Positions 2,749 through 18,803 of a DNA stretch of 64,000 nt are shown in pieces. Position numbers and translations under genes: made by a program. The notes under the pieces were generated by a model. That model saw nothing but the letters and a program-made list of their open reading frames with translations. It ran no database searches and was not told the origin of the DNA. The stretch lies in the NCBI GenBank assembly GCA_024762535.1, contig JANTHG010000001.1, positions 211 to 64,210 on the forward strand. Direction: 5' to 3'. Every line of letters starts with the position of its first letter. Positions within the stretch are counted from its first letter, which is position 1. This DNA is from Calditrichaceae bacterium. GTDB lineage: Bacteria; Calditrichota; Calditrichia; Calditrichales; Calditrichaceae.

Positions 2749-2756
2749 AAGGGTTT

Positions 2757-5700
2757 TTAAAAAAACGCACGGATTTCCGCCTGCCCGGAATGGATGACAC
2801 GCTTGAATCCGGCTTCATCCCGTCCATTGTAAAACAGGCTGAATACCACGTTTTTCGCTAAGGTATATTCTAAGCGCGCCTGCCAGTTTTGTGAAAGGCC
2901 TTCCTTTTTGCCCCGCGCCATTTCGTAAGGTACGGTGCGGCTATCCGGATTGCTCGTTGGGCTAACCGTTTGAAACTGGTATTGAGCGGTAACCCGTCCG
3001 CTTGCCGGCAAGGCGTAGCTTAGCCGGGTTTTAATGAGAGCGTACCACAGCTTTATGCGATAGGTAAGGGAACGGTTTTCTTCTTTTCCGTATTCGCTTT
3101 CCAGACCCAGTTCCCACTGCTTAAACGGACGGTACGATACATTTTGATCGGCATACCAACCGGCAATATCCCGATTGCGCTGGGGATTGGCTGCACTTTG
3201 GCGTAAAACTGTTTTTAAGCGAAATTCCGTTTGCCCTTTAATCCGGCCGCCCATCCGCCAATTGGCCCGCAGGCCGCTTTCTTCGCTGCGTCCGTCTTCG
3301 TTTTCTCCGGAACTCACAAACTGATTACTGCGGTTCTTGCGGAACCGATAACGCAGTCGGAACGAAAGCGCCCGGTTCCTGCGCATTATATACCAGTCCT
3401 GATTAAACTGCGTAACGCCGCGTACCGTGTAATCGCTTTGAAAATGAGAGAGATCCAGCAGGTACACAGACCAGATATCCGGATCTTTGCTTTCTTCTTC
3501 TACCCTAAAATAGGTTTCGGAACTCAGTTGACGCATCCAACCGGACCACCAACCTGTGGGCTTCCGCCAATAGCGCGCCGGGTCTAATTTCAAACGCAAG
3601 GCCGACTGAACAGTAGTTACCGGTTCATATTTTCCCGAAGGCAGTACAAACAGCATAAAGCGTCCGTCCGGGTCCGGCACGTACTCCTGCAAATCTTCAT
3701 CAAAGCGCAAATTCCCCCGTCCCTGTCCCACTTCGAGATATACTTTTTCTTTTAATGCGGCCTGTTCCGATGAAATCCGGTATTGCAGAGAAAGATTGAC
3801 TGCTTTTTTCCAGGCAGCATGCGCAACATTCAGTTCCGCCAAATCTGTACTGCGGTCGCGCCATACCGTATCCTGAACCGTAGGATCCGTATACTGCAGC
3901 TTTAGTGTATCCTGAGCCACATTTTCAAAGGCAGCCGTAAAATCTTTATTTCGATGCACCAATTGAACATTGGCCGCCGTACCGGTTACACCAAGCAATT
4001 TAAGAGATACCTTATGCGTACCTGTAATCGCCTGGGGAATCAGCTTGTTGCGTTGTTTATAATCATACACGGCGTCTTCGCGATGCTTCCATTCATAAAA
4101 GCCTTCGGCGTATTTCCACTGATACAGATTTAAACGCGCGCCGAAATCGGTAAACGCAAATCCGCTTACCGTACCATTTGCACGGTTGGCGCGGTTTTCT
4201 GACCTAAACGTTAATTGGGGATCCAGCTTCCAAAAGCGGTACCCGGCTTTAGCATTAAACCGTTTCCAAACATTGTTGCTGTTCAGGTCGTTTCGTTCAC
4301 TGTTTATTTCTTCGTATCCGGCGCTTAGGGTGCGTTCCGTATTGCCCAGAGCCGCCTGTACGGCAAAGCGGTTCGAGGCAAACACAGCTCGGTCCAGGCG
4401 TCCGGCATTTGCGGAAATCTGCATCTGTTTGAAAGGAAGATAGGTTAGATTGGCCTGGTAACTTTGTTCGCCGTTTCCGGCTGCATCTGTAACGTTTGTA
4501 TTCCAGTAACGCTGGAAATCCGGCTGCTGATAGCGATCCAGCGCTTTAAAATCGCTTTCCACATAGCGGGCATTGGCATTCATACTTACCCGGCCCAAAT
4601 TCCATGATCCCCATTTAAGCGCTATTTGATCCGCATGTGCTTTTGCCTGCACCGCGCTCCCCTGATTGTCTCCATCGTCCCGCGCGGACAAGGTGTTCTT
4701 ATCGAGGCGTGATAACGCATATTCCACATCCAAACCGCTGTGTACACCGGCTTTCCATTGCAACTGAAGGTTGGCCTGATCCTGGCGGGAAGGTAAGGGA
4801 ATTAAGCGAATGGGCAGGTAGCGCCCCTGCTCTGGCCCGACCCAGCGGTACACACCCAGCCGATCGCGATTATAGGAACCATGGCCGGCGCCCACATCGG
4901 AGAAGACGACCGAGTAATTACCGTTTCCGCTTCCCACATATTTAAAATAGGGTGTGGCAGCGTTTTGCCAAAGGGTATCGCGTTGTATGTAATTTCCGCT
5001 GAAATCTTCTTTTAGGGTTTCACCGGGCAAAAAGGCATCAAGCGGATCATCACCTGCTGATTTCAGAATATTTCGTTCTTCGCTATTGAGGGATTGTGCG
5101 CCGTACAATGTTTGAGCGGGATCGTCTGCTTCGCGGTACACCTTCATACGTAATTTGATTCCCGCTGCTTTCCAGCGCCCGGTGGCTGTGCCGCTGTACA
5201 CATTGCGATTGTAGTTCTGGGTCACCGGGAAATATTCAAAATCCACCTCAATGCGCGAAGAACTGGTGATCAGCCGGCGCGCTGTAAAACGGATTTCACC
5301 GTTTCCGTATTCGATGGTGTAATCATTGCTCTTGCCGCGGGTCATTTTCTGCCCGTCAATCCAAACCTTTTCCGTTCCGGCCAGCACTACAATATTTCGT
5401 TCGCCGTTTTTACCGGTTAAACGGTACGGCCCCTGATTGCCTTCCTGCCCAAGAAAACTGAGATGATTAAAAAAACCGCGTGTGGTGGCCACGGTCGCGG
5501 AAATTTGCTGTTTGCCATATCTGCCCTGCAGAGTAATACCCTGTAATTTGCGGGTCAGCCGGCTAAATTCCGAGTTTTTATATTCCAGATTAAAATCGCC
5601 CACCGTGCCCTGCACATAGGGACTTTTAAATTTCACAAACACTTTGTCCACTTCATTTAAGGTTTGCGTGTTGCCTTCGGGCTGAATGGGAGTGGCTTCG

Positions 5701-6260
5701 TCCGTTAGTGCGGCAACCACTTCCACATTGTCGGTCAGTTTACCGGAAAGTTCCACATTCAATCCGGAGTTCAAAGAAAAATCACGATTGGTTCCCACCT
5801 GCACGCCGCGCATGATGCTGCCGCTGGTTTGCAATCCCGAACCGATATTCTCAAAAGGATTGACAAAATGAATGGCCCGGAAACGGGGGGCCCCGGAAGA
5901 ATCTGAGGTAACGCTGTCTGAAAGTGTATTTTTCGAAAATAAGGTGTAGCGCTGTTTAAAATTAAAGGGTAAGCGGCGGTAGCGAATACGCAGGGTGTCG
6001 TGGGGTTGCAGGGCAAAAAAGAAAATAGTGCGCTCGCCTTTCCAGCGAAAGTCCACTTCTTCTGCAAGTTGGTGCTTATTTCTGAATATTTGCAGGGTCT
6101 GTTTTTGCGGCAAATGGCGGGCCGGTACCTTGTACACGTAGGATGCCGAGGGCACGACAATTAGAGTATCCACCTGCCAACGGTACGGCAGATGCAGGGT
6201 TTGCGCTTGCAGGCAAAAGGATATTAATACCAGGGGAATAATGAGATAGGATTTTTTCAT
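2757..6260 (-). CDS. very large outer-membrane beta-barrel protein, uncharacterised
   Basis: 1167 aa with signal peptide MKKSYLIIPLVLISFCLQAQ. It is rich in alternating aromatic/polar strands (Y/W/R/N/G) and ends with the aromatic C-terminus ...AEIRAFF typical of OMPs. It lies 18 nt downstream of the NHL gene on the same strand. Confidence 0.7.
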   Translation of the reverse strand: MKKSYLIIPLVLISFCLQAQTLHLPYRWQVDTLIVVPSASYVYKVPARHLPQKQTLQIFRNKHQLAEEVDFRWKGERTIFFFALQPHDTLRIRYRRLPFNFKQRYTLFSKNTLSDSVTSDSSGAPRFRAIHFVNPFENIGSGLQTSGSIMRGVQVGTNRDFSLNSGLNVELSGKLTDNVEVVAALTDEATPIQPEGNTQTLNEVDKVFVKFKSPYVQGTVGDFNLEYKNSEFSRLTRKLQGITLQGRYGKQQISATVATTRGFFNHLSFLGQEGNQGPYRLTGKNGERNIVVLAGTEKVWIDGQKMTRGKSNDYTIEYGNGEIRFTARRLITSSSRIEVDFEYFPVTQNYNRNVYSGTATGRWKAAGIKLRMKVYREADDPAQTLYGAQSLNSEERNILKSAGDDPLDAFLPGETLKEDFSGNYIQRDTLWQNAATPYFKYVGSGNGNYSVVFSDVGAGHGSYNRDRLGVYRWVGPEQGRYLPIRLIPLPSRQDQANLQLQWKAGVHSGLDVEYALSRLDKNTLSARDDGDNQGSAVQAKAHADQIALKWGSWNLGRVSMNANARYVESDFKALDRYQQPDFQRYWNTNVTDAAGNGEQSYQANLTYLPFKQMQISANAGRLDRAVFASNRFAVQAALGNTERTLSAGYEEINSERNDLNSNNVWKRFNAKAGYRFWKLDPQLTFRSENRANRANGTVSGFAFTDFGARLNLYQWKYAEGFYEWKHREDAVYDYKQRNKLIPQAITGTHKVSLKLLGVTGTAANVQLVHRNKDFTAAFENVAQDTLKLQYTDPTVQDTVWRDRSTDLAELNVAHAAWKKAVNLSLQYRISSEQAALKEKVYLEVGQGRGNLRFDEDLQEYVPDPDGRFMLFVLPSGKYEPVTTVQSALRLKLDPARYWRKPTGWWSGWMRQLSSETYFRVEEESKDPDIWSVYLLDLSHFQSDYTVRGVTQFNQDWYIMRRNRALSFRLRYRFRKNRSNQFVSSGENEDGRSEESGLRANWRMGGRIKGQTEFRLKTVLRQSAANPQRNRDIAGWYADQNVSYRPFKQWELGLESEYGKEENRSLTYRIKLWYALIKTRLSYALPASGRVTAQYQFQTVSPTSNPDSRTVPYEMARGKKEGLSQNWQARLEYTLAKNVVFSLFYNGRDEAGFKRVIHSGQAEIRAFF

Positions 6261-6278
6261 AGATCGGTTTCAGACCGT

Positions 6279-7148
6279 TTAGTGAAAACGACCGATAAGT
6301 AATTCATTTCCGTCCAACAAGAACATCATATTGCCGGAATCGTCTTTGAGCATAGCCACATCCTGCAGATGGTTCGGACTACGGGTTGTTTTAAGCGTGA
6401 CCGTTTTTATTTGGCTAAGCCCGGGATCCACCATAAACAGAATGCCCGCTTCCGAATCGGTAATCCATATTTTCCCTTCTTCGCTTACCGCCAGACCTGA
6501 TGGCCGCTTCATGCGCGGATCGTGCAAAGCCTTAATAAAATTTCCAAAAAAGTCATAAACAAAAAGAGCTTTGGCATCGGCATCGGTTACCATAAGCAGA
6601 CCACGTGGCGCAATATCCAACTGAACGGGATTTTGCAGTTCTCCAGCTCCGGAAATATAGGTACCAAAACTGCGTTCCGGCTGGCCCAGACGATTTATTT
6701 TTACGATTTTATTTTCACCGTGATCCAGAATAAACAAATCGTTGTTAGAAGAGACGGCACAACTGGCTACTTCCGCAAACTGAATATCATCATCACCCGT
6801 TTCATCCGTGGATAACGAGGAAATATAATTCATCTGCCGGTCAAAGCGCTGAACACGGCGGTTGTTGTAATCCGCCACATAAATATTGATGAGCGAACCG
6901 CACCAGATGTCCGCCGGCGCGTCAAACTGATCCTGCTCAAAGCCGAATCCGCCAATGGTTCGCAAGATACGTCCTCTGGAATTTAAAATGACAATGCGAT
7001 TGTTGCCTGTATCCGCTACATACACACGGCCATCGGCCGAAACAGCCACGGCCTTGGGATTGTTAAAGTCTGCTACCCGGCTTTGTTCCGTAAAGGTCTG
7101 TGCGTAAAGCAGTGCGCTAAAAATTAAAAGGATGAAATATTTTTTCAT
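6279..7148 (-). CDS. NHL-repeat (six-bladed beta-propeller) secreted protein
   Basis: Signal peptide MKKYFILLIFSALLYAQ. The motifs recur as P.GVAV..DG.IYVADTGNNRI / DHGENKIVKI / VTDADAKALFVYD. Confidence 0.8.
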   Translation of the reverse strand: MKKYFILLIFSALLYAQTFTEQSRVADFNNPKAVAVSADGRVYVADTGNNRIVILNSRGRILRTIGGFGFEQDQFDAPADIWCGSLINIYVADYNNRRVQRFDRQMNYISSLSTDETGDDDIQFAEVASCAVSSNNDLFILDHGENKIVKINRLGQPERSFGTYISGAGELQNPVQLDIAPRGLLMVTDADAKALFVYDFFGNFIKALHDPRMKRPSGLAVSEEGKIWITDSEAGILFMVDPGLSQIKTVTLKTTRSPNHLQDVAMLKDDSGNMMFLLDGNELLIGRFH

Positions 7149-7206
7149 ATCACCAATGTAACGGAAATGCTATTTTATTTCAAGGAAGAAAAACACGGAC
7201 AGGAGA

Positions 7207-7410
7207 TTGGTTGTTGGGTTATTAAGTTATTGAGTTATTAGGTTATTGGGTTGTTGGGGTGGCAAGTTGCGTACGTCATTGCGAATCTCGCATAAACTGG
7301 ATGAAGCAATCCCCAATGGTTCGCTACGTCATTGCGAGAGCCGCAGGAGTGAAGCAATCCTAAAGGGGAGCGCCACGTCGTTCGCTTGCGCTCGCTTCTC
7401 GCGATGACGG
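7207..7410. repeat. composite intergenic repeat cluster, copy A
   Basis: Tandem 8-9-nt TTATTGRG units span 7207-7260. Two CGTCATTGCGA-N-GAAGCAATCC units lie at 7274-7312 and 7327-7360. AGGGGAGCGCCACGTCG lies at 7364-7380, and the inverted partner CTCGCGATGACG at 7398-7409. The same modules recur near 32.6 kb and, inverted, near 48.4 kb. Confidence 0.65.
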
Positions 7411-7441
7411 TAATACGGGAAAAAAGGGAAAGAAAAAAGGC

Positions 7442-7468
7442 AAAAAAAATCCCGCCATAAGGCGGGAT
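7442..7468 (-). terminator. rho-independent terminator after rpmA
   Basis: Hairpin ATCCCGCC-ATAA-GGCGGGAT (7449-7468). The A-run at 7442-7449 on the plus strand is a U-run on the minus strand. The element lies 12 nt past the rpmA stop. Confidence 0.8.
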
Positions 7469-7479
7469 TTTAAAATGTA

Positions 7480-7743
7480 TTAATTAACGGATTCAGGATA
7501 CACGCTCACTTTTTTGCGGTCGCGATCTTTTCGTTCAAATTTTACATACCCGTCAATTTTGGAGAACAATGTGTCGTCCCCACCAATCCCAACATTGTTG
7601 CCGGGATGGATTTTGGTTCCGCGTTGACGCATGATGATAGAACCTGCAGTTACAAATTCGCCACCAAACGCTTTCACTCCCAGACGTTTGGAATGGCTTT
7701 CGCGTCCGTTTCTGGAACTACCAACACCTTTCTTATGTGCCAT
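7480..7743 (-). CDS. rpmA: 50S ribosomal protein L27
   Basis: [24 protein letters not shown]... is the canonical L27 N-terminus. Its ATG directly abuts the rplU stop. Confidence 0.95.
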
Positions 7744-8217
7744 CTATGCCTCCTTCCCTTCGTCTTTCGGATCGGCCTTTTTGGGGGCTGCTTTAGGTTT
7801 TGCGGTTTTGGCTGCTGCTTTTTTCGGAGCTGCTTTTTTAGCTTCCGGAGCTACATCCGTTTTTTCGGCTTTCGGTTTGGCCGCTGCTTTTTTCGCCGGT
7901 TTAACAACCGCGATATCATCAATTTTAATCAATGAAAAGCCCTGACGGTGCCCATTCTTTTTCTGGTACCCTTTGCGGCGTTTTTTCTTGAACACAATAA
8001 CTTTTTTATCACGACCGTGTTCAACAACCGTGGCGCTGACTTTCATATTTTTAACCAGCGGTTGGCCGATTTGTGTTTTACCGTTGTCATCGGTGTAAAT
8101 CAAAACATGATCAAACTCTACTTTGCTGCCGCTTTCGGCCTGCAAAGAGGGAACTTTCAGGTTTTTATCTTTTTCAACCCGGAATTGTTTTCCGGCAATT
8201 TCTACGATTGCGTACAT
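7744..8217 (-). CDS. rplU: 50S ribosomal protein L21 with Lys/Ala/Pro-rich C-terminal tail
   Basis: [17 protein letters not shown]... is the L21 core of about 105 aa. It is followed by [14 protein letters not shown]...[15 protein letters not shown]. Confidence 0.95.
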
Positions 8218-8260
8218 CTATTTTATCTCCCAAAAATCTTTATTTTCAAAAAGAGCGTTT

Positions 8261-8289
8261 AATATAACCCTATCCACACAAATTGTCAA
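8261..8289 (-). promoter_or_regulatory. candidate sigma-70-type promoter for rplU-rpmA
   Basis: The minus strand reads TTGACA-17 nt-TATATT (plus-strand tgtcaa 8284-8289, aatata 8261-8266). It lies about 45 nt upstream of the rplU ATG and immediately after the rng stop. Confidence 0.45.
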
Positions 8290-8290
8290 G

Positions 8291-9814
8291 CTATTTCTCA
8301 TCGCTCAGAAGGGTTTTATCTAAGCGATCATACACTTTAAACTGACCGATTTGCAGGGATTCGTCACGTACGAGCCTTATTTTCATCCAGTATTTCCACA
8401 TCAGTTGCAAACGACGGTTATAGCGGCCGGCTGTCATGTATTTATGTACTTCGGGAGTTACATGAATAGTGATACGGCGATCGCCCCGGCTGGCACGATA
8501 CCGTTTAATCCAGCGTTCCAAAGCCGAAACCGATGTGTTCATCGTTGGTACCAATCCCGTTCCGTCGCAGGTGGGGCAAGCTGTGTTAATCGTATGAATA
8601 ACGCTGGGTCGCACCCGCTGGCGGGTCATTTCGATAAGGCCAAAACGGCTGATAGCTTCAATTTTGGTAATGGAACGATCCTTGGCAAATTCTTTTTTCA
8701 GTTCCATAAACACTTTGCGTTTATTGGCTTCTTCCTGCATATCGATAAAATCAATAACAATGAGTCCGCCAAAATCACGAAGCCGGGCCTGACGGGCAAT
8801 TTCCCGCGCGGCTTCCATATTGATTTTAAGAGAATTACTCTCATGATCTTTTTTCCCGATGAACTTTCCACTGTTTACATCTATGGATACCAGCGCTTCG
8901 GTGGGCTCAATAATCAAGGAACCACCATTTTTAAGCCAGACCTTGGAGTAACCCAAATTCTCTATTTCTTTTTCAATATTGTAATGATCAAAAATCGGTT
9001 CTTTACCGTTGTAATACGACACTTTATGGCTCAAATGAGGAGCCACATATTTTACATACGATAATATTTCGCGCATCTGTTTGCGGGAATCCACCACCAC
9101 ATTATCCACTTCGGAAGTAAACAGATCCCGAATGATGCTGGAAGCCATAGCCATATCCTTATGAACCAGTACCGGTGCTTCACTTTTTTTAATATTTTTT
9201 TCAATCTTTTTCCAGGTATCCATCAATTTATTGAGGTCTTTGCGTAATTCGCTTTCCTGTTTTTTTTCAGCCACAGTACGGATAATCACGCCAAAGTGCT
9301 CCGGGATGATTTGCCGGGCAATATCCCGTAAACGTTTCTTCTCTTTGTGATCGGATATTTTGCGGGATATGCCGATATGGCGTTTCCCGGGAATCAGTAC
9401 CATAAATCGTCCCGGCAACGAAAGTTCGGTTGTTACGCGGCAGCCTTTGGTATTGATGGGTTCTTTGATGATTTGTACCAGAATATCCTGGCCTTTTTTA
9501 AGTTTTTTGGCTACGTTAAAGTCTTCTCGGCGCGATGGCTTGCGACCTCCGTTTTCTTCTTCGTAGTCAATAAAATAATCCTGGTAAGTAGCGGATACAT
9601 CCGAAAAATGCAAAAAGGCATTTTGTTCATGGCCGATGTTGATAAACACAGCCTGCATGCCCGGTAGCACCCGGCTTACTTTTCCCTTGTAGATATCGCC
9701 CACCATGCGTTCATATTCGGGACGTTCCACAAATAATTCCACCAACTTAGAATCTTCCAGAATTGCAATCCGGGTTTCCTCGTTTGTTGTGTTAATTACT
9801 ATTTCCTGTTTCAT
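8291..9814 (-). CDS. rng: ribonuclease G/E family endoribonuclease
   Basis: N-terminal S1 domain (GDIYKGKVSRVLPGMQAVFINIG), and the C-terminal CPTCDGTG zinc-link motif typical of Rne/Rng. I prefer the ATG at 9814 (MKQEIVIN), which has GAGGAAA upstream. The ORF track extends to 9859. Confidence 0.9.
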   Translation of the reverse strand: MKQEIVINTTNEETRIAILEDSKLVELFVERPEYERMVGDIYKGKVSRVLPGMQAVFINIGHEQNAFLHFSDVSATYQDYFIDYEEENGGRKPSRREDFNVAKKLKKGQDILVQIIKEPINTKGCRVTTELSLPGRFMVLIPGKRHIGISRKISDHKEKKRLRDIARQIIPEHFGVIIRTVAEKKQESELRKDLNKLMDTWKKIEKNIKKSEAPVLVHKDMAMASSIIRDLFTSEVDNVVVDSRKQMREILSYVKYVAPHLSHKVSYYNGKEPIFDHYNIEKEIENLGYSKVWLKNGGSLIIEPTEALVSIDVNSGKFIGKKDHESNSLKINMEAAREIARQARLRDFGGLIVIDFIDMQEEANKRKVFMELKKEFAKDRSITKIEAISRFGLIEMTRQRVRPSVIHTINTACPTCDGTGLVPTMNTSVSALERWIKRYRASRGDRRITIHVTPEVHKYMTAGRYNRRLQLMWKYWMKIRLVRDESLQIGQFKVYDRLDKTLLSDEK

Positions 9815-9876
9815 TTTTTCTGTTTCCTCGTTGTTAAGCGATCGGGAAAGCAGAAACAAAATGAGGATAAGCCATA

Positions 9877-12495
9877 TTAAGAATGAAGAATTTCGATGGG
9901 CGTCAGCTCTTTGCCGTCGCGGGCAATCAATTGTTTGGAACGATGTACCCTGGCAAAGCGATCGTCAAAGTGCTGATCCTGAAAAAGTTGCTGTAATATT
10001 TCACGTACGCGAACCGTCCGGTTTTCAATGCTCCGGGTTTTAATGGATACGCGATTATGTTCTCTTACAATGGATTCGATATAGGGTCGAATATTTACAT
10101 TTTTATACTTTCCCTTTACCCGGCGTTCCACTTCGATGGCTTCGGAACGTAAAAGTGTTTCTAAGGCTTCATCAAAACCGGAGTTATGGGAATCAAAAAG
10201 GTCCAGTTCAATTTCATACTCGGCTGTGTTGATTGCCGCTGCCAGGGCCTGCGCTTTACTATGTATTTCCTGCACTTCCAGCAGTTGCAGTCCCTCGGGT
10301 AAATACGGATTGATCGAATCGCTTAATAGAGTTACATCGAATGTGGCATTCAATTCCATATCCAAATATTCGGCCTCGCTGGTATATCCCAATGATAAAG
10401 GCGGCCCGAATGATAATTTGGGATGGGGGTTGAAGCCCTGACTGTACAATACTGGGACCTGTGCCTGACGCGCTGCCCGTTCAAAAATACGGATCAGATC
10501 CAAATGGGATAAATAACGCGCATACGCGGTTTTTTGATAACGGATACGCACTTTACGGCTTTCTACCGTTTCTTCCGTCTGCTTTGGTTTGGTGATAGCT
10601 GTAGCGGACGGTATGGGCTCAGGTTCGCTTGATTCGGTTTTTGGCAAATAACAACTGGCAAACGGAGCAAACAGATCTTTTCGCTGAATGCCACAGCCAT
10701 AACAGCTGCCGTTTTTACAATCGATTTTGGTTTGCTCACGAAAGGCTTCTTCCCGTTCTTTGGATAAAAAGCGTTTGCTTACGCCTTTATCGATATGATC
10801 CCAGGGCAAAGGCAGACCCGGATCAATGGCCTGGGCAAAACGGGTAAAGGGATAGCCTGTTTTTTGCGCAGCTTCCTGCCAAATATCCATTTTAAAGTGC
10901 TCGGACCAGCCGTCAAACCGGGCGCCCTGCTTCCAGGCAAGGTAAATGATTTCGGCCAAACGGCGGTCGGCTCTTCCTAAAATGCATTCGAGTAATGAAA
11001 CATCCGGATCACGCCAGGAAAATTTAACCTGACGGTTCCGGCCAAATCGGTTTCTTAAAATCGCAACTTTTTTCTGAAATTCTTCCTTAGTATTTTGCCG
11101 TTCCCATTGAAACGGGGTATGTGCCTTTGGTGAAAACGGAGACACGGATACATTAAACTGAATGCGTCCGTACGCTCTGCTTATTTTCAATACCTCGTCT
11201 ATCAAATCGGCAATGGCTTCTACATCCTCCTCTGTTTCTGTCGGTAACCCGATCATAAAATAAAATTTTAAAACACGCCAGCCGTTTTCCAGCGCAATGC
11301 GCACCGACCGGTATAAATTGTCTGCTGTAATATTTTTGTTAATTACCCGGCGTAACCGTTCACTACCTGCTTCCGGCGCAAAGGTAAAGCCCGACTTACG
11401 AACCGAAGAAGCGAACTCTGCAATTTCCGGCGTAAAACTATCTAAGCGCATGGAAGGAAAGGACACGTTAATATTCTTCCCCTGCAGCGCCTGCCTGCTG
11501 CGTCGCATCAGTCCGTTAAGTCCGGAATAATCCGAAATGGACAGGGATAAAAACGAGACTTCCTGATAACCGGTAGCTTCGAGAGAGCGGTTCATCTGCT
11601 CAATAATTTCTTCCTGCGGCCGCTCCCGTGTGGGGCGGTAAATCATTCCTGCGTTACAATAACGGCAACCTTCGGTGCAGCCGCGCATTACTTCTACGGA
11701 AAGACGGTTATGTGTAACTTCAATAACCGGCACAATCGGTTTTTCCGGATAGTAGGCGCTCTGTAATTGGGGGAGTACCCGGCTTAACACCCGTTCCGGC
11801 GCCAAAGATTCGCTCGCTTTAACGGATTTAATCCACCCATCCGCATCGTACTCGGCCTGATAAAAAACAGGTATGTACACACCTCGTAACTGTGCCAGTT
11901 CCTGTAAAATTTCCCTGCGGGATTTTTTTTGACTGCGCCCCGAGGCCACCACATCAGCCATCTCTACAAAGGCCTCTTCTCCGTCGCCAATCAAAAAGGC
12001 GTCGATAAAGGGCGCCATAGGTTCGGAATTGCAGCTGCACGGCCCGCCTCCGAAAATAAACGGGTCTTTTTCTGTGCGTTCCTTCGCCCAAATCGGAATG
12101 CCCGATAAATCCAGCATATTTAAAATATTGCTATAAGTCAGCTCATATTGCAGAGTAAAACCGATAATATCCAATTCGGCCAGCGGCGTAAAGGATTCCA
12201 GGCTATACAGCGGCAGACCCTCGGCGCGCATCCGTTCTTCCATATCGGTCCAGGGCGCGTACACCCGTTCGGCCCAGATATGGGGCTGACGATTGAGTAC
12301 ATGATACAGAATATCAAAACCAATATAGGACATGGCCAATTCGTACACTTCCGGAAAAGCCAGCCCTACCCGCACGGAAACCGCTTCCGGGTCTTTGCGC
12401 ACCATATTCAGTTCATTGCCGACATAGCGGCCGGGTTTGGTCACCAATGGCAATATGCGCTTATTTAATATATTTTCTATCTTTTTATTTTTCAT
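9877..12495 (-). CDS. radical SAM protein (B12-binding-like N-domain) fused to a DUF2344-like C-terminal domain
   Basis: CTEGCRYC is a CxxxCxxC cluster motif. The C-terminal 230 aa (VRIRYQKTAYARYLSHLDLIRIFERAARQAQVPVLYSQGFNPHPKLSF) matches the DUF2344/TIGR03936 pattern as I recall it. The two parts are joined by a Ser/Glu/Pro/Thr linker. Confidence 0.8.
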   Translation of the reverse strand: MKNKKIENILNKRILPLVTKPGRYVGNELNMVRKDPEAVSVRVGLAFPEVYELAMSYIGFDILYHVLNRQPHIWAERVYAPWTDMEERMRAEGLPLYSLESFTPLAELDIIGFTLQYELTYSNILNMLDLSGIPIWAKERTEKDPFIFGGGPCSCNSEPMAPFIDAFLIGDGEEAFVEMADVVASGRSQKKSRREILQELAQLRGVYIPVFYQAEYDADGWIKSVKASESLAPERVLSRVLPQLQSAYYPEKPIVPVIEVTHNRLSVEVMRGCTEGCRYCNAGMIYRPTRERPQEEIIEQMNRSLEATGYQEVSFLSLSISDYSGLNGLMRRSRQALQGKNINVSFPSMRLDSFTPEIAEFASSVRKSGFTFAPEAGSERLRRVINKNITADNLYRSVRIALENGWRVLKFYFMIGLPTETEEDVEAIADLIDEVLKISRAYGRIQFNVSVSPFSPKAHTPFQWERQNTKEEFQKKVAILRNRFGRNRQVKFSWRDPDVSLLECILGRADRRLAEIIYLAWKQGARFDGWSEHFKMDIWQEAAQKTGYPFTRFAQAIDPGLPLPWDHIDKGVSKRFLSKEREEAFREQTKIDCKNGSCYGCGIQRKDLFAPFASCYLPKTESSEPEPIPSATAITKPKQTEETVESRKVRIRYQKTAYARYLSHLDLIRIFERAARQAQVPVLYSQGFNPHPKLSFGPPLSLGYTSEAEYLDMELNATFDVTLLSDSINPYLPEGLQLLEVQEIHSKAQALAAAINTAEYEIELDLFDSHNSGFDEALETLLRSEAIEVERRVKGKYKNVNIRPYIESIVREHNRVSIKTRSIENRTVRVREILQQLFQDQHFDDRFARVHRSKQLIARDGKELTPIEILHS

Positions 12496-12607
12496 ATGTT
12501 TTACGCGTTTGCGAATCGGCGTTAAATATATAAAACGGCGGGTAGTTTAGCAAACATGCTTGTCACAGTCTAATATATAAAATCCTGTACAGGAAAAAGA
12601 ACCCCGG

Positions 12608-13048
12608 TTAATGCATCAGATTTTGTAACATGGCAGTTACTTTTTCAACATTGGCATGGGTATCGGGAATAATAACGACAGCATCGTCTCCGGCTACGGT
12701 TCCGATAATATGCTCGTCTTTCAGTTTGTCAAGATAAATTCCTACTCCCTGCGCACGGCCTGGCATGGTTCGAATCACAACGGTGGACTCATTATGCAGG
12801 ATACTGATAATTTCCATTCCGATAATTTGTTTAATAGCCCGGGAATTATCGTCTTTGTGGAAAACATATTTAAACCCTTCACCGTCCGGTACACGTACAA
12901 TGCCGATTTCGTGTAAATCGCGCGAGAGCGTTGCCTGTGTAGTGTCAAATCCGTATTCCTGTAGTTTGGCCAATAAGTCTTCCTGGCTGGCAATTTTTTC
13001 CGAAATCACAATTTCTTTAATCTTTGCCTGGCGTTGTTTCTTATTCAT
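12608..13048 (-). CDS. argR: arginine repressor ArgR
   Basis: 146 aa. The winged-helix N-terminus is RQAKIKEIV...IASQEDLLAKLQEYGFDTTQATLSRDLHEIG. The C-terminal oligomerisation domain contains GTVAGDD. Confidence 0.9.
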   Translation of the reverse strand: MNKKQRQAKIKEIVISEKIASQEDLLAKLQEYGFDTTQATLSRDLHEIGIVRVPDGEGFKYVFHKDDNSRAIKQIIGMEIISILHNESTVVIRTMPGRAQGVGIYLDKLKDEHIIGTVAGDDAVVIIPDTHANVEKVTAMLQNLMH

Positions 13049-13244
13049 AACGATACTTCCATCTTTCGTCCTACTGCTGAATTGCTTGATTTCTCATCGT
13101 AATAAAATTAGTTATTTTTAATAAATATTACAAGTAAAAGAAAAAAACACGCTCCGGATGATTATTTCCCATCCTCTCTTGTGTTTCTCCGCTCATAGAA
13201 TTATATTTTTTGTTTCGATTTACCCAGTAAAGTCAGGAGGTAAT

Positions 13245-14600
13245 GTGTCCAGATTAATGGTATCTATTTCAGGTTTGCGGGGCGAAGTGGGCAGCACACT
13301 CACGCCGCAGGTTATTCAAAAATATACGGCTGCATTCGCCAAATATGTGCAGGGTGGAAAAGTGGTTTTAGGGCGGGATTCCCGGGTATCCGGACCGTTT
13401 GTCAATGATTTGGTTAAAGGAACCCTCGTGGCATCCGGCTGTGAAGTGATTGAAATTGGTATTGTGCCAACGCCAACAGTTCAGCTGGAAATTGAGCACC
13501 ATCAGGCAGCCGGTGGTATTGCTATCACAGCCAGTCACAATCCCATTCAGTGGAACGGACTCAAATTTATGGGCAGCGATGGCCGGTTTTTAAATCCCGA
13601 ACAAGCCGGGAAAGTGTATGCCATGGCAGATGCCGGAGAACAGGCCTACAAAGAATGGTCGGAATTAGGCGCTGTTACGATCGATTTCGGTGCTATAGAC
13701 CGGCATATTGAAAAAGTAAAAAACATTTCCTTTGTGGATGTGGAAGCTATTCGCAAGCGAAAGTTTAAAGTTGCGGTGGATACGGTCAATGGCGCAGGCG
13801 GTGCGATTATTCCTAAATTATTAAAAGAACTGGGCTGCGAGGTCTTTGCCATCAATCAGGAAACCAGCGGACGTTTTGCCCACACACCGGAACCGTTGCC
13901 GGAGAACTTAGCGCAATTGGGCGATGCCGTTAAAGCGAACAACGCTGACCTCGGTTTTGCAGTGGACCCGGACGTGGACCGCTGCGCTATTGTGGACGAA
14001 ACCGGAAGGCCTTTGGGTGAAGAATACACGCTGGCCATTGCCACGAAGCTGGTGTTCAGCAAAGAGATGGGACGCATGGCTGTGAACATGTCCACCTCCC
14101 GCGCTTCGGAAGATATCGCCAAATATTACAATTGTATGTTTGTGCGCAGTAAAGTAGGCGAAATAAATGTAGCGGAAAAAATGAAGGAAATCGACGCCCT
14201 GATTGGCGGCGAAGGCAACGGAGGCGTCATTCTGCCGGAAGTACACCTTGGCAGGGACGCGCCGGTGGCGGTTGCGCTTACCTTACAGATGCTGCTGGAA
14301 CAGGGCGGAACCATCAGCGCGCTAAAGGCTTCTTTGCCGCAGTACGAAATGGTGAAGCTGAAAGTAAATATTGGAAATATGCAGCCGGATAAGCTTTTGG
14401 CAGCAATGGCCGAAACCTATAAGGACCAGCCCATCGATACTCTGGATGGCTTGAAGATTGATTTTAACAATAGTTGGGTACATTTGCGGAAATCCAACAC
14501 CGAACCGATTATCCGCGTGATTGCCGAAGGGCCAACCGAAGCGGAAGCGCGCAGTCTGGCCGAACGCTTTATGGATGAATTAACCAGGGTAAACGGATGA
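13245..14600 (+). CDS. alpha-D-phosphohexomutase superfamily enzyme (PGM/PMM-type; probable phosphopentomutase by context)
   Basis: Phosphoserine loop TASHNP, metal loop FAVDPDVDRC and sugar loop GGEGNGG. The start is either GTG 13245 (AGGAGG 4 nt upstream) or ATG 13257. The ORF-track start at 13158 adds a non-conserved leader. Confidence 0.85.
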   Translation: MSRLMVSISGLRGEVGSTLTPQVIQKYTAAFAKYVQGGKVVLGRDSRVSGPFVNDLVKGTLVASGCEVIEIGIVPTPTVQLEIEHHQAAGGIAITASHNPIQWNGLKFMGSDGRFLNPEQAGKVYAMADAGEQAYKEWSELGAVTIDFGAIDRHIEKVKNISFVDVEAIRKRKFKVAVDTVNGAGGAIIPKLLKELGCEVFAINQETSGRFAHTPEPLPENLAQLGDAVKANNADLGFAVDPDVDRCAIVDETGRPLGEEYTLAIATKLVFSKEMGRMAVNMSTSRASEDIAKYYNCMFVRSKVGEINVAEKMKEIDALIGGEGNGGVILPEVHLGRDAPVAVALTLQMLLEQGGTISALKASLPQYEMVKLKVNIGNMQPDKLLAAMAETYKDQPIDTLDGLKIDFNNSWVHLRKSNTEPIIRVIAEGPTEAEARSLAERFMDELTRVNG

Positions 14601-14887
14601 TTATCTGCAATGTAATCGGTGATGTGGTTTCCACTGTAAAGAATGAACATTTTACAGGCAAGAAACTTCTTATCGTGCAGCCGCTGAATCTGGACAATGA
14701 ACCGGATGGTGAAGCCTTTCTGGCTATAGACACAGTGCAGGCCGGCAAAGGCGACCGGGTACTGGTGATGCGCGAAGGCGGTTCGGCGCGTATTATTTTT
14801 GAAGATGAAAACATCCCGGTACAGGCGGTAATTACCGCGATTGTGGATGAAGTCCGTTTTTTGAAAAACGAAAATCTTTCTAACTAA
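14597..14887 (+). CDS. EutN/CcmL family bacterial microcompartment vertex (BMC-P) protein
   Basis: The 96-aa protein is colinear with E. coli EutN (GDVVSTV, KKLLIV, EPDGE, AIDTVQAGKGDRVLV, GGSAR, AIVDEV). The ATGA overlap with the mutase stop suggests translational coupling. Confidence 0.88.
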   Translation: MIICNVIGDVVSTVKNEHFTGKKLLIVQPLNLDNEPDGEAFLAIDTVQAGKGDRVLVMREGGSARIIFEDENIPVQAVITAIVDEVRFLKNENLSN

Positions 14888-14899
14888 CAGGATACATGT

Positions 14900-15733
14900 A
14901 TGGCAGCAATTACATCACAAGATATCGAACACATTATATCTCAGGTTATTGCGGAAAAAAATATTGATACCGCAGGGTATCGCCCCTTTTCATACGATGC
15001 CGCCAACGACCTGCTTTCTTTTGGCGCCAGCCGCATTGGTGCGGTAGCGCCATCCTGTCCACCCAAATACGAACTGGCCAAATGGATTGACCATACGTTA
15101 CTTAAACCGGACGCTACCCAGGCGGATATTGAAGCGGTTTGCTCGGATGCCCGTGAACATGGATTCGCTTCGGTGTGCATCAATCCCACCTGGGTACCAC
15201 TAGCCTACAAAATGCTGCGTGGATACGAATCGCGCGTGTGCACGGTAATCGGTTTTCCGCTGGGTGCGACCTTCCCGGAGGTCAAAGCAGCTGAAGCGCG
15301 TTTGGCTGTGGAACAGGGCGCGGATGAGGTAGATATGGTCATCAATATTGGCGCGCTCAAATCCGGCGACTACCAATTGGTGGAACACGACATCCGTTCT
15401 GTTGTTCGCGCGGCAGGTCGGCGCATTGTAAAGGTAATTTTAGAAACCTGCCTGCTAACCGACGAAGAAAAAGTGCAGGCTTCGGCTATTTCCAAAAAAG
15501 CTGGCGCCAATTTTGTGAAAACTTCCACCGGATTTTCCACAGGCGGCGCTACCGTCAAAGATGTGGCCCTTATGCGTAAAGCTGTTGGCTCGGAGATGGG
15601 TGTTAAAGCCAGCGGTGGTGTACGCACTTATGAAGAAGCCTGTAAAATGGTTGAAGCAGGCGCAACACGCATAGGCGCCAGCGCCAGTGTAGCCATTGTG
15701 GGCAACGGCAGCGCTTCCGGCGACGGATATTAA
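14900..15733 (+). CDS. deoC: deoxyribose-phosphate aldolase with about 55-aa N-terminal extension
   Basis: The core begins at [15 protein letters not shown]. The Schiff-base lysine lies in FVKTSTGF, and [10 protein letters not shown] is near the C-terminus. AGGA lies 7 nt upstream of the ATG. Confidence 0.9.
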
Positions 15734-15779
15734 TCATATTTTGGAACAAAACAGCTTTAAAAGGAATTAGGAAATTATT

Positions 15780-17096
15780 ATGACAGCATACGAAATCATC
15801 AGTAAAAAACGGGACGGGTTTGAACTTTCGGAAGAAGAAATCGGCTATATGATTAACGGCTACGCCGAAGGCCGTATTCCGGACTACCAAATGTCTGCCT
15901 TGCTCATGGCTATCTTTTTACGCGGCATGAATAAACAGGAAACCATGACCGTTACCAAAAACATGCTCTATTCCGGTGAAGTCGTAGATTTAAGCAGCAT
16001 TCCGGGCGTAAAAGTGGATAAACACAGTACCGGCGGTGTGGGTGATAAAGTATCCATTATTCTGGCTCCGGTAGTAGCTGCAGCGGGCGTACCTGTGCCC
16101 ATGATTTCCGGACGGGGGCTGGGGCATACGGGCGGTACTTTAGATAAATTGGAAAGTATTCCCGGATTTCGTGTGGATTATTCCATTAAAGAATATAAAG
16201 AAAAAATTGCACGAGTGGGTACTTGCCTTATTGGGCAAACCCCGGACATCTGCCCGGCCGATAAAAAGATGTACGCGCTGCGGGATGTTACAGCCACCAT
16301 TCAGTCTATTCCCCTGATTACGGGCAGCATTATGAGTAAAAAACTGGCCGAAGGTATTGATGCGCTGGTACTCGATGTTAAAACCGGACACGGCGCTTTT
16401 ATGCAAAAGCACGAAGATTCCGTAGCTCTGGCCAAGCAGCTCATCTCTGTGGGTGAAGCCTTTGGAAAACCTACAGTGGCGTATATTACGGATATGAATG
16501 AGCCACTGGGTAATGCGGTGGGCAACTGGCTGGAAATCGTGGAATGTATTGACGGGCTGCATGGCGAAGGTCCGGACGATTTGATGGAAGTAACCCACCA
16601 GCTTTGTGGCGCGATGATTTATCTTGGTAAAAAAGCTGCTTCTATCGAAGAAGGGGTGGAAATTTCCAAAGAAATGATTCGCAGCGGCAAAGCCTGGGAT
16701 AAATTCCTGGAAATTGCAGAGGAACAAAACGGTGATGTGGATATACTGAAAAATCCCCTGCGTTACCCGAAACCGGCTTTTCAGGCGCAGGTTCCGGCCG
16801 CAGAAAGCGGATATGTGGCCTCCATTCATTCCCTCGAGGTAGGGCTGACTGCAGTTACTTTGGGCGCCGGTCGCCAGAAAGCGGATGATCTGATTGACCC
16901 TAAGGCCGGCATTGTGCTGCATAAAAAAGCCGGGCAGGCTGTGGAAGCGGGCGAACCGATTATGTCCGTTTACACCGATAGAGAAGAAGTGCTTAAAGCA
17001 GCTGTTGAACGTCTGGGAAAAGCGGTTGCCTATTCGGCACAGCCGGTTGAATCGAAAGCTTTGATACATGAATATCTGGATAAAAACAGTTTGTAA
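15780..17096 (+). CDS. deoA: thymidine / pyrimidine-nucleoside phosphorylase
   Basis: The sequence IISKKRDG..LS.EEI...INGY..G.IPDYQMSALLMAI...GM and KVDKHSTGGVGDK is the canonical family signature. Confidence 0.9.
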   Translation: MTAYEIISKKRDGFELSEEEIGYMINGYAEGRIPDYQMSALLMAIFLRGMNKQETMTVTKNMLYSGEVVDLSSIPGVKVDKHSTGGVGDKVSIILAPVVAAAGVPVPMISGRGLGHTGGTLDKLESIPGFRVDYSIKEYKEKIARVGTCLIGQTPDICPADKKMYALRDVTATIQSIPLITGSIMSKKLAEGIDALVLDVKTGHGAFMQKHEDSVALAKQLISVGEAFGKPTVAYITDMNEPLGNAVGNWLEIVECIDGLHGEGPDDLMEVTHQLCGAMIYLGKKAASIEEGVEISKEMIRSGKAWDKFLEIAEEQNGDVDILKNPLRYPKPAFQAQVPAAESGYVASIHSLEVGLTAVTLGAGRQKADDLIDPKAGIVLHKKAGQAVEAGEPIMSVYTDREEVLKAAVERLGKAVAYSAQPVESKALIHEYLDKNSL

Positions 17097-17099
17097 TTT

Positions 17100-17891
17100 A
17101 TGGGCCGGCTAACCAAACGACAGCAAAAGCGAATTAATTACTTCCTGCGTGAAAAAATGGAACGCCGGGAAAAGCACGACATTATTCACCAGGGCAATGT
17201 GCCGAAGTTCATTGAACGGCATATGCCCTACATCCGCAAACTGGCCCGGAATTTAGACCAAATTCTAATCGTAAGTTCGGTAGTGTCTCCCGAAATCAAA
17301 ACCGGGCTTATCGATCGCTTCCTTATTCTCGGTGAAATCGAACATATCCCCTGTACCATTTGCATTAACAAAACCGACCTTTTGGATGACCCGGCTCCTG
17401 CACAGGAAATTGCCGAAATGTATCGCAAAATCGGTTATTCGGTTCTGCTTACTTCTGCCAAATCCGGAGAAGGACTTACAGAATTACATGACGCTCTTCA
17501 AAATAAGCGCACGGCTCTGGCCGGTCATTCCGGAGTGGGCAAAAGCAGTTTGCTTAATGCCATTGCACCGGACCTGGAAATTTCGGTGAATGAGGTCAGC
17601 CGGGTGAATAATAAAGGGAAGCACACCACAACCAAAGTCCGTTTGTACCAGTTGGATGACACAACCGATGTACTCGATTTGCCCGGTGTTAAAATTATTG
17701 ATTTCATTGATATTCATCGTGATGAAGCGCGCTTTTATTTCAGAGAATTTGAAAGTTTTGCCGAAGAATGCAAATTCCGTGACTGCCTGCATGTAAGTGA
17801 GACGCCCTGCGGTGTAAAATCGGCGGTAGAGCGTGGCGCTATTCATCCCCTGCGCTATCAGTCGTATTTAAATTTTATTGAGACTCTCTAG
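17100..17891 (+). CDS. rsgA: ribosome small-subunit-dependent GTPase A, short form lacking the N-terminal OB fold
   Basis: Circularly permuted GTPase motifs in the order INKTDL (G4), then GHSGVGKSSLLN (G1), then DLPG (G3). The C-terminal zinc knuckle is CKFRDCLHVSETPCGV. Only about 50 aa precede NLDQILIV. Confidence 0.85.
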   Translation: MGRLTKRQQKRINYFLREKMERREKHDIIHQGNVPKFIERHMPYIRKLARNLDQILIVSSVVSPEIKTGLIDRFLILGEIEHIPCTICINKTDLLDDPAPAQEIAEMYRKIGYSVLLTSAKSGEGLTELHDALQNKRTALAGHSGVGKSSLLNAIAPDLEISVNEVSRVNNKGKHTTTKVRLYQLDDTTDVLDLPGVKIIDFIDIHRDEARFYFREFESFAEECKFRDCLHVSETPCGVKSAVERGAIHPLRYQSYLNFIETL

Positions 17892-17993
17892 CCAGACCCG
17901 GTACCATCAAATCTGTTTAAACATATCCTGCCGCAGGTTCATATTTTAAAAAAAAGGATTGCTTAATCATTACATACACAAACGTGGTTTAGA

Positions 17994-18803
17994 CTAATTT
18001 GTATACGTTTTTGGAGTGGTAAGATAATAAACTGCAGTGGTAAAAAAGTTGCGCAGGTAGGGCAGTTTCTGTATCCAGCGGAATTGCTCTTTGGTTTGGA
18101 TTTTGAATTTATATTCATAAATAGGGTTGAAGAGGAAGTGCTTTTGAGAAATTGTTTTAAACCTGTTTAAGCGCAGCATTTTTTCAAAGGTCTCGATGGA
18201 AAGTCCCAGTCGTTTAATTTCTAACAAGGCATCAATCTTAGCGGTGTTTTCGCCAAATCCTTTAAGCACTGTTATGTACAGTGATTTTGGCAATAGGTGG
18301 TAATAGGGCAGATGGGAAGCCCATTTATTCCGGCATACCTGCTGATGGCCGCCAAAAGGCATGTACCAGGGTGGAAAGGCAAAAAAAATCATGCCGTCTT
18401 CCCGTAAAAAGGTGTGCAGATAGGATAGCAGTTTAGGCTGATCGTCAATGTGTTCAATAACATCCTTGAGTACGATAAGATCAAATTGATTTTTAAATCG
18501 TTCTTTAAAGGTCTCGGCATAGATATTTTCATTGATCAGCGTAACCCGGGCCGATTCCAGCTCTTCCCGTAAAAGGGTTTTTGCCTTTTCCAGACGTGAG
18601 GCGTTTAAGTCCACTCCCGTAGCCAGGCAGTTCCGTTCCACAAAAGCCTTGAGTACGCCACCCTCCGCGCAGCCGATTTCCAGCACCTGCATGCCGGGTT
18701 TGAGCGATCGTTTTTCTTCAATAAAGGGAATAATAAAATTTTGTGTGGTTAAACGCTGGTGCTCAAAATAGATGTCACGATTTTCATGAAAAAAATAGGC
18801 CAT
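17994..18803 (-). CDS. class I SAM-dependent methyltransferase
   Basis: Motif I is VLEIGCAEGGVL, and post-I/II is DLIVLKDVIEHIDD. Confidence 0.8.
   Translation of the reverse strand: MAYFFHENRDIYFEHQRLTTQNFIIPFIEEKRSLKPGMQVLEIGCAEGGVLKAFVERNCLATGVDLNASRLEKAKTLLREELESARVTLINENIYAETFKERFKNQFDLIVLKDVIEHIDDQPKLLSYLHTFLREDGMIFFAFPPWYMPFGGHQQVCRNKWASHLPYYHLLPKSLYITVLKGFGENTAKIDALLEIKRLGLSIETFEKMLRLNRFKTISQKHFLFNPIYEYKFKIQTKEQFRWIQKLPYLRNFFTTAVYYLTTPKTYTN

Follow-up and report, generated by a model that had tools for sequence, protein, structure and literature searches.

A deoxyribose-phosphate aldolase with a conserved N-terminal extension, encoded in a satellite deo-type operon, is the probable signature enzyme of a Calditrichota microcompartment

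All deoxyribose-phosphate aldolases (DERAs) of SPU-type bacterial microcompartments (BMCs) carry an N-terminal amphipathic-helix extension (Dwyer, Sutter & Kerfeld 2024, PMC11585597). That study described the extension as "an alpha helix and two beta strands," with no mention of a duplication, reported that an SPU DERA without it is soluble and retains activity and dimerization, and noted that the starts of compartment DERAs are often wrongly shortened by automated annotation (PMC11585597). The classical encapsulation peptides (EPs) of PduP, PduD, EutC and EutE were described by Fan et al. 2010, Kinney et al. 2012 and Aussignargues et al. 2015, which we take here as cited in PMC11585597. According to the available part of a preprint on Hodarchaeales (PMC12747264), an EP-bearing Flav+DERA is among the GFP-tagged enzymes that are selectively recruited to archaeal shells on coexpression. 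The compartment of the Calditrichota was catalogued as "incomplete core" in 2014 (Axen et al. 2014, PMC4207490), when the locus of Caldithrix abyssi, with its aldehyde dehydrogenase (AldDH), PTA and PduS, was found to lack a signature enzyme, and as "FRAG3" in 2021 (Sutter et al. 2021, PMC8217296). In the portion of the 2021 supplement accessible to us, DeoC adjoins the shell protein BMC-P in the FRAG3 loci of Calditrichaeota and is treated only as "a clue to function." Here we analyze a stretch of 64,000 nucleotides from a Calditrichaceae bacterium (GenBank assembly GCA_024762535.1, contig JANTHG010000001.1, positions 211 to 64,210 of the forward strand; referred to as the window), in which a DERA gene with an N-terminal extension lies directly downstream of a BMC-P gene.

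Both the extension on compartment DERAs and the adjacency of DeoC and BMC-P have been published, and the window DERA is therefore a further example of them. The additions made here are a deo-type satellite operon and an internal duplication within the extension; the operon would supply the signature enzyme missing from the C. abyssi locus. We consider it likely that this DERA is the signature enzyme of the Calditrichota catabolic microcompartment (FRAG3, an SPU-like metabolosome), that it is supplied from a satellite operon, and that its N-terminal helix serves as an EP. The literature examined, some of it available in part, does not state that the FRAG3 DERA bears an extension or that the satellite is a complete deo-type operon. 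The gene and the parts of its extension are as follows.

14900..15733, plus strand: DERA (DeoC), complete, 277 amino acids, with N-terminal extension (TIGR00126 deoC equivalog, E=2.8e-90)
14889..14892, plus strand: AGGA, a Shine-Dalgarno-like motif read directly from the sequence, ending 7 nt before the DERA ATG
14915..14956, plus strand: extension part 1, amphipathic helix, residues 6-19, putative EP (AlphaFold2 and conserved face)
14957..14980, plus strand: extension part 2, variable spacer, residues 20-27 (KNIDTAGY), the only real linker (mean entropy, 2.94 bits)
14981..15082, plus strand: extension part 3, conserved block, residues 28-61 (mean entropy, 0.91 bits), a profile-matched copy of helix α7-strand β8
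15623..15685, plus strand: source-like segment of the duplication, DERA residues 242-262, helix α7-strand β8 (hhalign; AlphaFold2 helix 244-253 and strand 257-260)

The enzyme is a class I DERA (TIGR00126, PF01791) by an equivalog-level match and a TIM-barrel fold. Residues 58-266 covered model positions 1-209 of TIGR00126 with 301 bits against a cut-off of 117, and the Pfam DeoC match extended over residues 62-273. An AlphaFold2 model based on a 78-sequence alignment (mean confidence score [pLDDT], 86) superposed on solved DERAs with a root mean square deviation of 0.8-1.2 Å over 206-218 columns, leaving the N-terminal part without a counterpart. The catalytic residues were located in the motifs EVDMV, VKVILE and FVKTSTG; D145, K178 and K207 do not vary in alignments of either 24 or 78 sequences, nor does the C-terminal Y277 in that of 24. 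By motif rather than by alignment, we take D145, K178 and K207 to be E. coli D102, K167 and K201 (compare PMC11585597). The nearest solved DERAs, 5dbu and 8qps (~64% identity over the barrel), align from window residue 58, which corresponds to their residues 5-11. Since the solved DERAs and the deoC model both begin at residue 58, some 53-57 residues of the window DERA are extra, a terminal extension with no counterpart in these noncompartment homologues. A preliminary description of this DNA had counted about 55 residues ahead of the canonical start, and this count held, as did the presence of every feature that it described.

Translation of the extension is indicated by two lines of evidence. 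Within the first 104 codons of the open reading frame, the sole ATG, GTG or TTG is the ATG at 14900; the next Met, M105, is within the barrel, and an in-frame stop, the TAA of the EutN-like (BMC-P) gene at 14885, lies 4 codons 5' of the ATG. In addition, codons of 28 orthologous DNA loci were threaded onto the window DERA gene, and differences per site were determined for codon positions 1/2/3.

Helix, codons 2-19: 0.31/0.16/0.58
Spacer, codons 20-27: 0.53/0.51/0.78
Block, codons 28-61: 0.16/0.09/0.56
Barrel: 0.17/0.10/0.56

This pattern indicates that the helix and block 28-61 are protein coding and under purifying selection and that the spacer is nearly neutral. The earlier reasoning that the extension is probably translated, which had cited the lack of an alternative start and the AGGA 7 nt upstream, is borne out by the start codon scan and by the codon pattern. 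The 120 best database relatives are Calditrichota wherever they are named, except for one Caldisericaceae and one KSB1 label. They are 274-328 amino acids long and bear the extension, save for a handful of shorter records (219-269 amino acids) that include partial entries and NCBI calls of 229 amino acids. All full-length DERA orthologues keep the extension, and the loss among relatives that would have spoken against the preliminary description was not seen. The Calditrichota DERA carries a conserved, translated N-terminal extension of 57-61 residues.

In the AlphaFold2 model of the extension, residues 6-19 form a helix and, after a stretch of low confidence, residues 32-40 form a second, short one; residues 41-55 are extended, and a helix at 56-62 enters the barrel. 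The N-terminus is thus predicted to be helical rather than disordered, and the helix (pLDDT, ~72) has the hydrophobic face of I9, I12, I13, V16 and I17 to which the preliminary description had drawn attention. These five positions have column entropies of 0.71, 0.17, 0.34, 0.17 and 1.04 bits, respectively, and positions 6, 7, 8, 11, 14 and 18 are variable (2.0-2.9 bits). The hydrophobic face at i, i+3, i+4, i+7 and i+8 is conserved across orthologues of 59-97% identity. The best 12-mer, residues 6-17, has a hydrophobic moment of 0.53, near the values of the EutE and PduP peptides. The predicted helix, its conserved face and the 12-mer moment agree with the amphipathic α-helix of ~15-20 residues expected of an EP, and the EP-like style proposed earlier is supported. 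Helix 6-19 most likely acts as an EP, by co-aggregating cargo or by binding to the shell.

A similar helix is found on the AldDH. The metagenome-assembled genome (MAG) GCA_024763395.1 has a contig that is 99.991% identical to window positions 4900-15771, and the AldDH of this MAG begins with MNLTEQEITRIVDSVINKI. When this N-terminus was compared with that of the DERA from the same MAG, the motif I-xx-(I/V)(I/V)-xx-V(I/L) was common to both, at an almost equal distance from Met1. An AldDH profile was built from 100 distinct N-termini drawn from the 120 best matches, mostly Calditrichota. The DERA N-terminal profile aligned with it in register, DERA residues 3-19 with AldDH residues 2-18, with a score of 20.1 compared with 8.8±2.5 for a column-shuffle null; none of the 150 shuffles reached the real score. 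A third protein, of 102-104 amino acids and encoded in the main shell locus (see below), bears a similar helix, EALVRTVVERVIRQL. One helix motif in several cargo proteins of one organelle is what would be expected of EPs. Since the 16-mer of residues 4-19 has a moment that is not significant against shuffles, the evidence for the DERA helix rests on periodic conservation and on the AldDH profile match.

The remainder of the extension had been described as a Gly/Pro/Ser/Ala-rich linker (residues 21-55), and this is not what we found. A classical EP is followed by a poorly conserved flexible linker; here the variable residues are 20-27 only. Block 28-61 is common to other extension-bearing DERAs. 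By codon pattern, selection on it equals that on the barrel, and it is nearly as conserved (mean column entropy, 0.91 bits versus 0.68 bits for the barrel), with G42, A43, R45 and P54 invariant. In hhalign, the profile of residues 28-61 matched the barrel profile such that residues 30-50 aligned with residues 242-262 (43% identity, P=2.2e-7, score of 39.0). The scores of 200 column-order shuffles were 10.2±2.0, with a maximum of 17, giving the real alignment a z of ~14. The same C-terminal α7-β8 segment was the best local match of the prebarrel segment in 11 of 15 distant extension-bearing DERAs, and in one of these, P0120, the match runs on into strand β7 (z=9.9). By profile comparison, the DERA's own helix α7-strand β8 unit is duplicated in block 28-61. 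The literature examined, as far as those sources were available, does not state that a copy from the barrel makes up half of the extension, nor does it mention the Cys motif of the spacer described next.

In relatives the spacer is 4-46 residues long, and its equivalents commonly hold a CxxC or CxxCxxC insert (e.g., P0066, P0071, P0087, P0114, P0127 and P0141), which is not present in the window lineage. C53 (in SCPP) is near-invariant in all extension-bearing relatives. Together, the CxxC inserts and C53 suggest a metal or redox site that was lost in the window lineage.

A search of 1.84 billion representatives with a profile of the extension alone retrieved 34 proteins. Ten were scanned, and nine of these have a DeoC domain directly C terminal to the extension match; the tenth, P0122, has no Pfam match and begins as a DERA before turning into low-complexity sequence, as after a frameshift. 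On this evidence the window extension appears to be homologous to that of other compartment DERAs, the retrieved proteins being taken as found and not as members of curated SPU loci. Six of the retrieved proteins (P0127, P0141, P0146, P0148, P0152 and P0153) are DERAs of 403-516 amino acids in which an EP-like helix, an insert of ~150-250 amino acids, a Cys motif and block 2 precede the barrel. We had expected the published RPI-DERA fusions, but no RpiB domain was found by Pfam at E≤1e-3, and the inserts had no Pfam match at 1e-3. Possible counterparts are the Flav+DERA fusions described in the Hodarchaeales preprint.

The enterobacterial deo operon, deoCABD, encodes nucleoside phosphorylase, phosphopentomutase and DERA together. 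The genes around the window DERA are as follows.

12608..13048, minus strand: ArgR-family repressor, divergent, 200 nt upstream of the operon (Pfam Arg_repressor and Arg_repressor_C)
13245..14600, plus strand: PGM/PMM-family mutase, putative phosphopentomutase (deoxyribose-1-phosphate to deoxyribose-5-phosphate), with all four PGM_PMM Pfam domains
14597..14887, plus strand: BMC-P vertex (pentamer) shell protein of the EutN/CcmL family, 96 amino acids (Pfam PF03319, E=1.2e-27)
15780..17096, plus strand: pyrimidine-nucleoside/thymidine phosphorylase (deoxynucleoside plus phosphate to deoxyribose-1-phosphate plus base; Pfam Glycos_trans_3N, Glycos_transf_3 and PYNP_C; TIGR02644, E=1.9e-168)
17100..17891, plus strand: RsgA GTPase (Pfam RsgA_GTPase, E=1.9e-50), 3 nt after the phosphorylase gene

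The window operon is a satellite deo-type operon comprising a PGM-family mutase, BMC-P, DERA and a pyrimidine nucleoside phosphorylase. The BMC-P gene overlaps the mutase stop by 4 nt and ends 12 nt before the DERA gene, and so the EutN-like neighbor reported in the preliminary description is confirmed both in its family (PF03319; similarity to the NCBIfam models of CcmL and EutN is below the cut-off) and in its distance. The phosphorylase gene follows 46 nt after the DERA gene, a downstream position conserved in most related loci. In nearly all related loci, the mutase orthologue immediately precedes the gene for DERA or EutN, and we infer its phosphopentomutase role from this gene context. 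Its start is GTG 13245 or ATG 13257, as judged from orthologues and gene calls of 449-451 amino acids; the ATG at 13158 of the raw open reading frame, where positions 13158-13256 add ~30 hydrophobic residues (MIISHPLLCFSAHRIIFFVSIYPVK...), is probably not real, as orthologues start later. RsgA follows the phosphorylase gene in most Calditrichota loci and is probably cotranscribed with the operon, with no evident role in the pathway. A promoter and terminator scan of positions 12900-18100 gave fewer matches than shuffled sequence and none on the plus strand within the operon, which is compatible with a single transcript. ArgR was considered as a general regulator of the operon and was rejected. 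There is no ArgR within 10 kb in loci L001-L036; it occurs in L038 and L039, both of the window's own strain, and is a lineage-specific neighbor.

The window is not a main shell locus. No BMC-H, BMC-T, AldDH, PTA or PduS was found in its 64 kb by tblastn (queries were PduA, EutM and CcmK2 and all main-locus proteins of L040); it holds a satellite locus and not one of the SPU-type main loci. The same operon arrangement was found in 30 species-level genomes, all Calditrichota except for one contig labeled Caldisericaceae, by a contig scan whose search patterns confine the results to Calditrichota and leave it silent on other phyla. BMC-P lies directly upstream of DERA in 17 of the 27 informative Calditrichota loci. 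In one Calditrichaceae MAG (L022, positions 9638-9894), the BMC-P gene and the adjoining mutase gene are each split into two tblastn segments, which could reflect a frameshift or an assembly error.

Shell loci were found elsewhere in the same or related genomes. In the MAG that carries the window locus, a second contig holds genes for a C-terminally extended BMC-H, a ParA-like protein, the 104-amino-acid protein, PTA, BMC-H, AldDH, PduS and BMC-T. Thus, besides the BMC-P gene 12 nt upstream of DERA, two kinds of BMC-H and a BMC-T are present in the MAG, and the absence of shell genes that would have counted against the preliminary description was not observed, subject to binning. In GCA_964542915.1 the main locus lies ~215 kb from the DERA operon on the same 698-kb contig and encodes a BMC-H with a C-terminal extension, ParA, the 102-amino-acid protein, PTA, two BMC-H, AldDH, a EutJ-like protein, PduS and BMC-T; it has neither BMC-P nor a signature enzyme. 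In L018 the shell locus comprises genes for an EP-bearing AldDH, two EutM-like BMC-H, PTA, the 102-amino-acid protein, a ParA-like ATPase and a C-terminally extended BMC-H. About 2 kb, holding one transporter-like open reading frame, separate its end from the mutase gene downstream.

The tailed BMC-H of the main locus has a Lys/Arg/Pro-rich tail and then a small helical domain (LLFLISSHPQGISLKTLAAELG...), which is reminiscent of EutK. It adjoins a ParA/MinD-like ATPase in the window's MAG (L042, positions 2044-2676 and 2673-3437), with counterparts at L018 5698-6270 and L040 6670-7227. These could be a DNA-binding shell protein and a positioning ATPase, as would befit an organelle whose substrates come from the breakdown of DNA.

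In the pathway that we propose, the phosphorylase would free deoxyribose-1-phosphate from deoxynucleosides, and the PGM-family mutase, to judge from its context, would turn this into deoxyribose-5-phosphate. DERA, loaded via its N-terminal helix, would then cleave deoxyribose-5-phosphate within the shell. The AldDH, PTA and PduS of the main locus would convert the acetaldehyde to acetyl-CoA and acetyl-phosphate and recycle NAD+. This follows the scheme of Dwyer et al. for SPU compartments (PMC11585597), with the genes for the upstream cytosolic steps here adjoining that of the signature enzyme.

Several observations weigh against this proposal. In 10 of the 27 informative loci, that of C. abyssi included, there is no adjoining BMC-P and the mutase gene abuts DERA. 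The NCBIfam model that best matches the mutase, above its cut-off, is TIGR03990, an archaeal-type phosphoglucosamine mutase (GlmM) and not a pentomutase. What ties the shell locus to the window is MAG binning, together with co-occurrence in sequencing runs SRR19843165-67. Two distant extension-bearing DERAs, P0118 and P0120, are in deo-type operons with no shell gene in view on contigs of 5-6 kb, and the extension may therefore not be confined to genomes that have microcompartments. As for the helix, the AlphaFold2 confidence is just ~72 pLDDT, 24% of shuffles reach the moment of the 16-mer, and only the 12-mer at 6-17 is comparable in moment to the known EPs. On the contigs of P0118 and P0120 (L045 and L046), the deo-type operon consists of alanine racemase, a DeoB-type metalloenzyme pentomutase, cytidine deaminase and DERA; compartment-type DERAs may recurrently have nucleoside-catabolic genes, and not shell genes, as neighbors.

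Some of these points would fit an extension that plays no part in encapsulation and instead serves this DERA clade as an appendage for structure, oligomerization or regulation, the EutN adjacency being mere synteny. For example, the duplicated α7-β8 block might mediate a strand-swapped assembly or modulate the catalytic C-terminal tail, with the helix being part of the same module. Such a role would account for a block that is barrel derived and as conserved as the barrel, unlike a classical EP with its floppy linker, for the loci without an adjoining BMC-P and for the distant extension-bearing DERAs whose contigs hold a deo operon but no shell gene. It does not account for the shared helix motif, which the organelle's AldDH has at its N-terminus in the same register, nor for a main locus without any other signature enzyme. 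In addition, the SPU DERA minus its extension is still a soluble, active dimer, and so fold and catalysis are independent of the extension (PMC11585597), and the nearest solved, non-BMC DERAs do without one. We regard an appendage of this kind as unlikely.

The amphipathic pattern of the helix could also have arisen by chance in a disordered leader that lacks a specific function, as the 16-mer moment within the shuffle distribution and the moderate AlphaFold2 confidence would allow. This is very improbable given that the conserved positions are precisely the hydrophobic ones among orthologues that are 59-97% identical, that codon position 2 of the helix changes at 0.16 per site versus 0.58 at position 3, and that the AldDH profile match exceeds all 150 shuffles. 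Least credible, to the point of being negligible, is a start-site artifact in which the true start lies farther downstream, leaving the extension in the 5' untranslated region. NCBI-named records of C. abyssi and two relatives (P0107-P0109) imply this, their products of 229 amino acids starting at the equivalent of V49. However, the window codon at this position is GTA, hence not a start codon, and no ATG, GTG or TTG occurs from codon 2 to M105; the substitutions in the extension block are of the coding type, like those in the barrel; and automated misannotation of BMC DERA starts has been described by Dwyer et al. (PMC11585597). In the C. abyssi records, automated annotation has again cut short the start of a compartment enzyme.

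We therefore retain a DERA that is loaded into the Calditrichota compartment through its N-terminal helix; we infer its encapsulation from the computational evidence, which supports it. A two-part extension of this reading, in which block 28-61 would be a cargo-assembly module and the operon would control the loading and capping of the shell, is speculative, and we hold it to be doubtful. In its first part, the duplicated α7-β8 could pair by β-augmentation or strand exchange with another DERA subunit, the shell or AldDH. If this were true, core condensation would be coupled to the DERA's own fold, and the block would be a second, previously undescribed cargo-assembly module. The second part would start from a BMC-P gene cotranscribed with DERA, an operon that is likely induced by deoxynucleosides and a main locus without pentamers; if it were true, the substrate would control both loading and capping of the shell.

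If encapsulation is as proposed, the Calditrichota compartment gains a signature enzyme and a likely substrate stream, from deoxynucleosides to deoxyribose-5-phosphate, and a satellite deo-type operon can encode the entry pathway of a compartment along with a vertex protein. The design of tags from the "DERA EP" would also be affected, as only ~20 residues look EP-like and the next 34 are a conserved, apparently barrel-derived element.

Compared with SPU-type DERAs, the window enzyme likewise has an intact catalytic barrel and an extension that is missing from non-BMC DERAs and that has its helix first and a further element before the barrel, and the extension-only profile retrieves mainly DeoC-domain proteins. 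It differs in that the extension is shorter (~57 versus ~70 residues), as is the helix (14 versus ~25-30 residues). Its locus differs as well. The window DERA is in a deo-type satellite operon with one BMC-P and not with AldDH, RPI and shell hexamers, and no RPI gene was seen in the parts of the main loci that were read. Dwyer et al. (2024) define an SPU locus by AldDH together with DERA or RPI in one shell locus; among our loci only L018 has this combination, and the window does not.

The likeness to FRAG3 is in the phylum, Calditrichota, in DeoC beside BMC-P and in two kinds of BMC-H, one of 95 amino acids and one of 185-210 amino acids with a C-terminal extension (L018, L040 and L042). In the part of the catalogue available to us, neither the extension nor the mutase and phosphorylase partners nor the division into main and satellite loci is given. 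Like the classical EPs, the window helix is N terminal, amphipathic and within a range of ~14-18 residues, with hydrophobic residues at i, i+3, i+4, i+7 and i+8, and its motif is common to more than one cargo of the organelle (here DERA, AldDH and the 104-amino-acid protein). Unlike them, it is followed by 8 variable residues and then by a conserved 34-residue block instead of a long, poorly conserved linker; this comparison is drawn from sequence.

The Flav+DERA of the Hodarchaeales, as far as the preprint was available, is similar in that a DERA is the signature enzyme of a compartment processing deoxyribose-5-phosphate, with EPs at termini or between domains. Among the relatives found here, P0127, P0141 and P0146 (488-516 amino acids; EP-like helix, insert of ~200 amino acids, Cys motif, block 2 and barrel) resemble its architecture, whereas the window DERA has neither the inserted domain nor the Cys motif.

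With deoCABD, the window operon shares the same three-step logic. It differs in that its mutase belongs to the PGM/PMM family and not to the DeoB/alkaline phosphatase family, in that a gene for a shell vertex protein is inserted, and in that its DERA bears the N-terminal extension.

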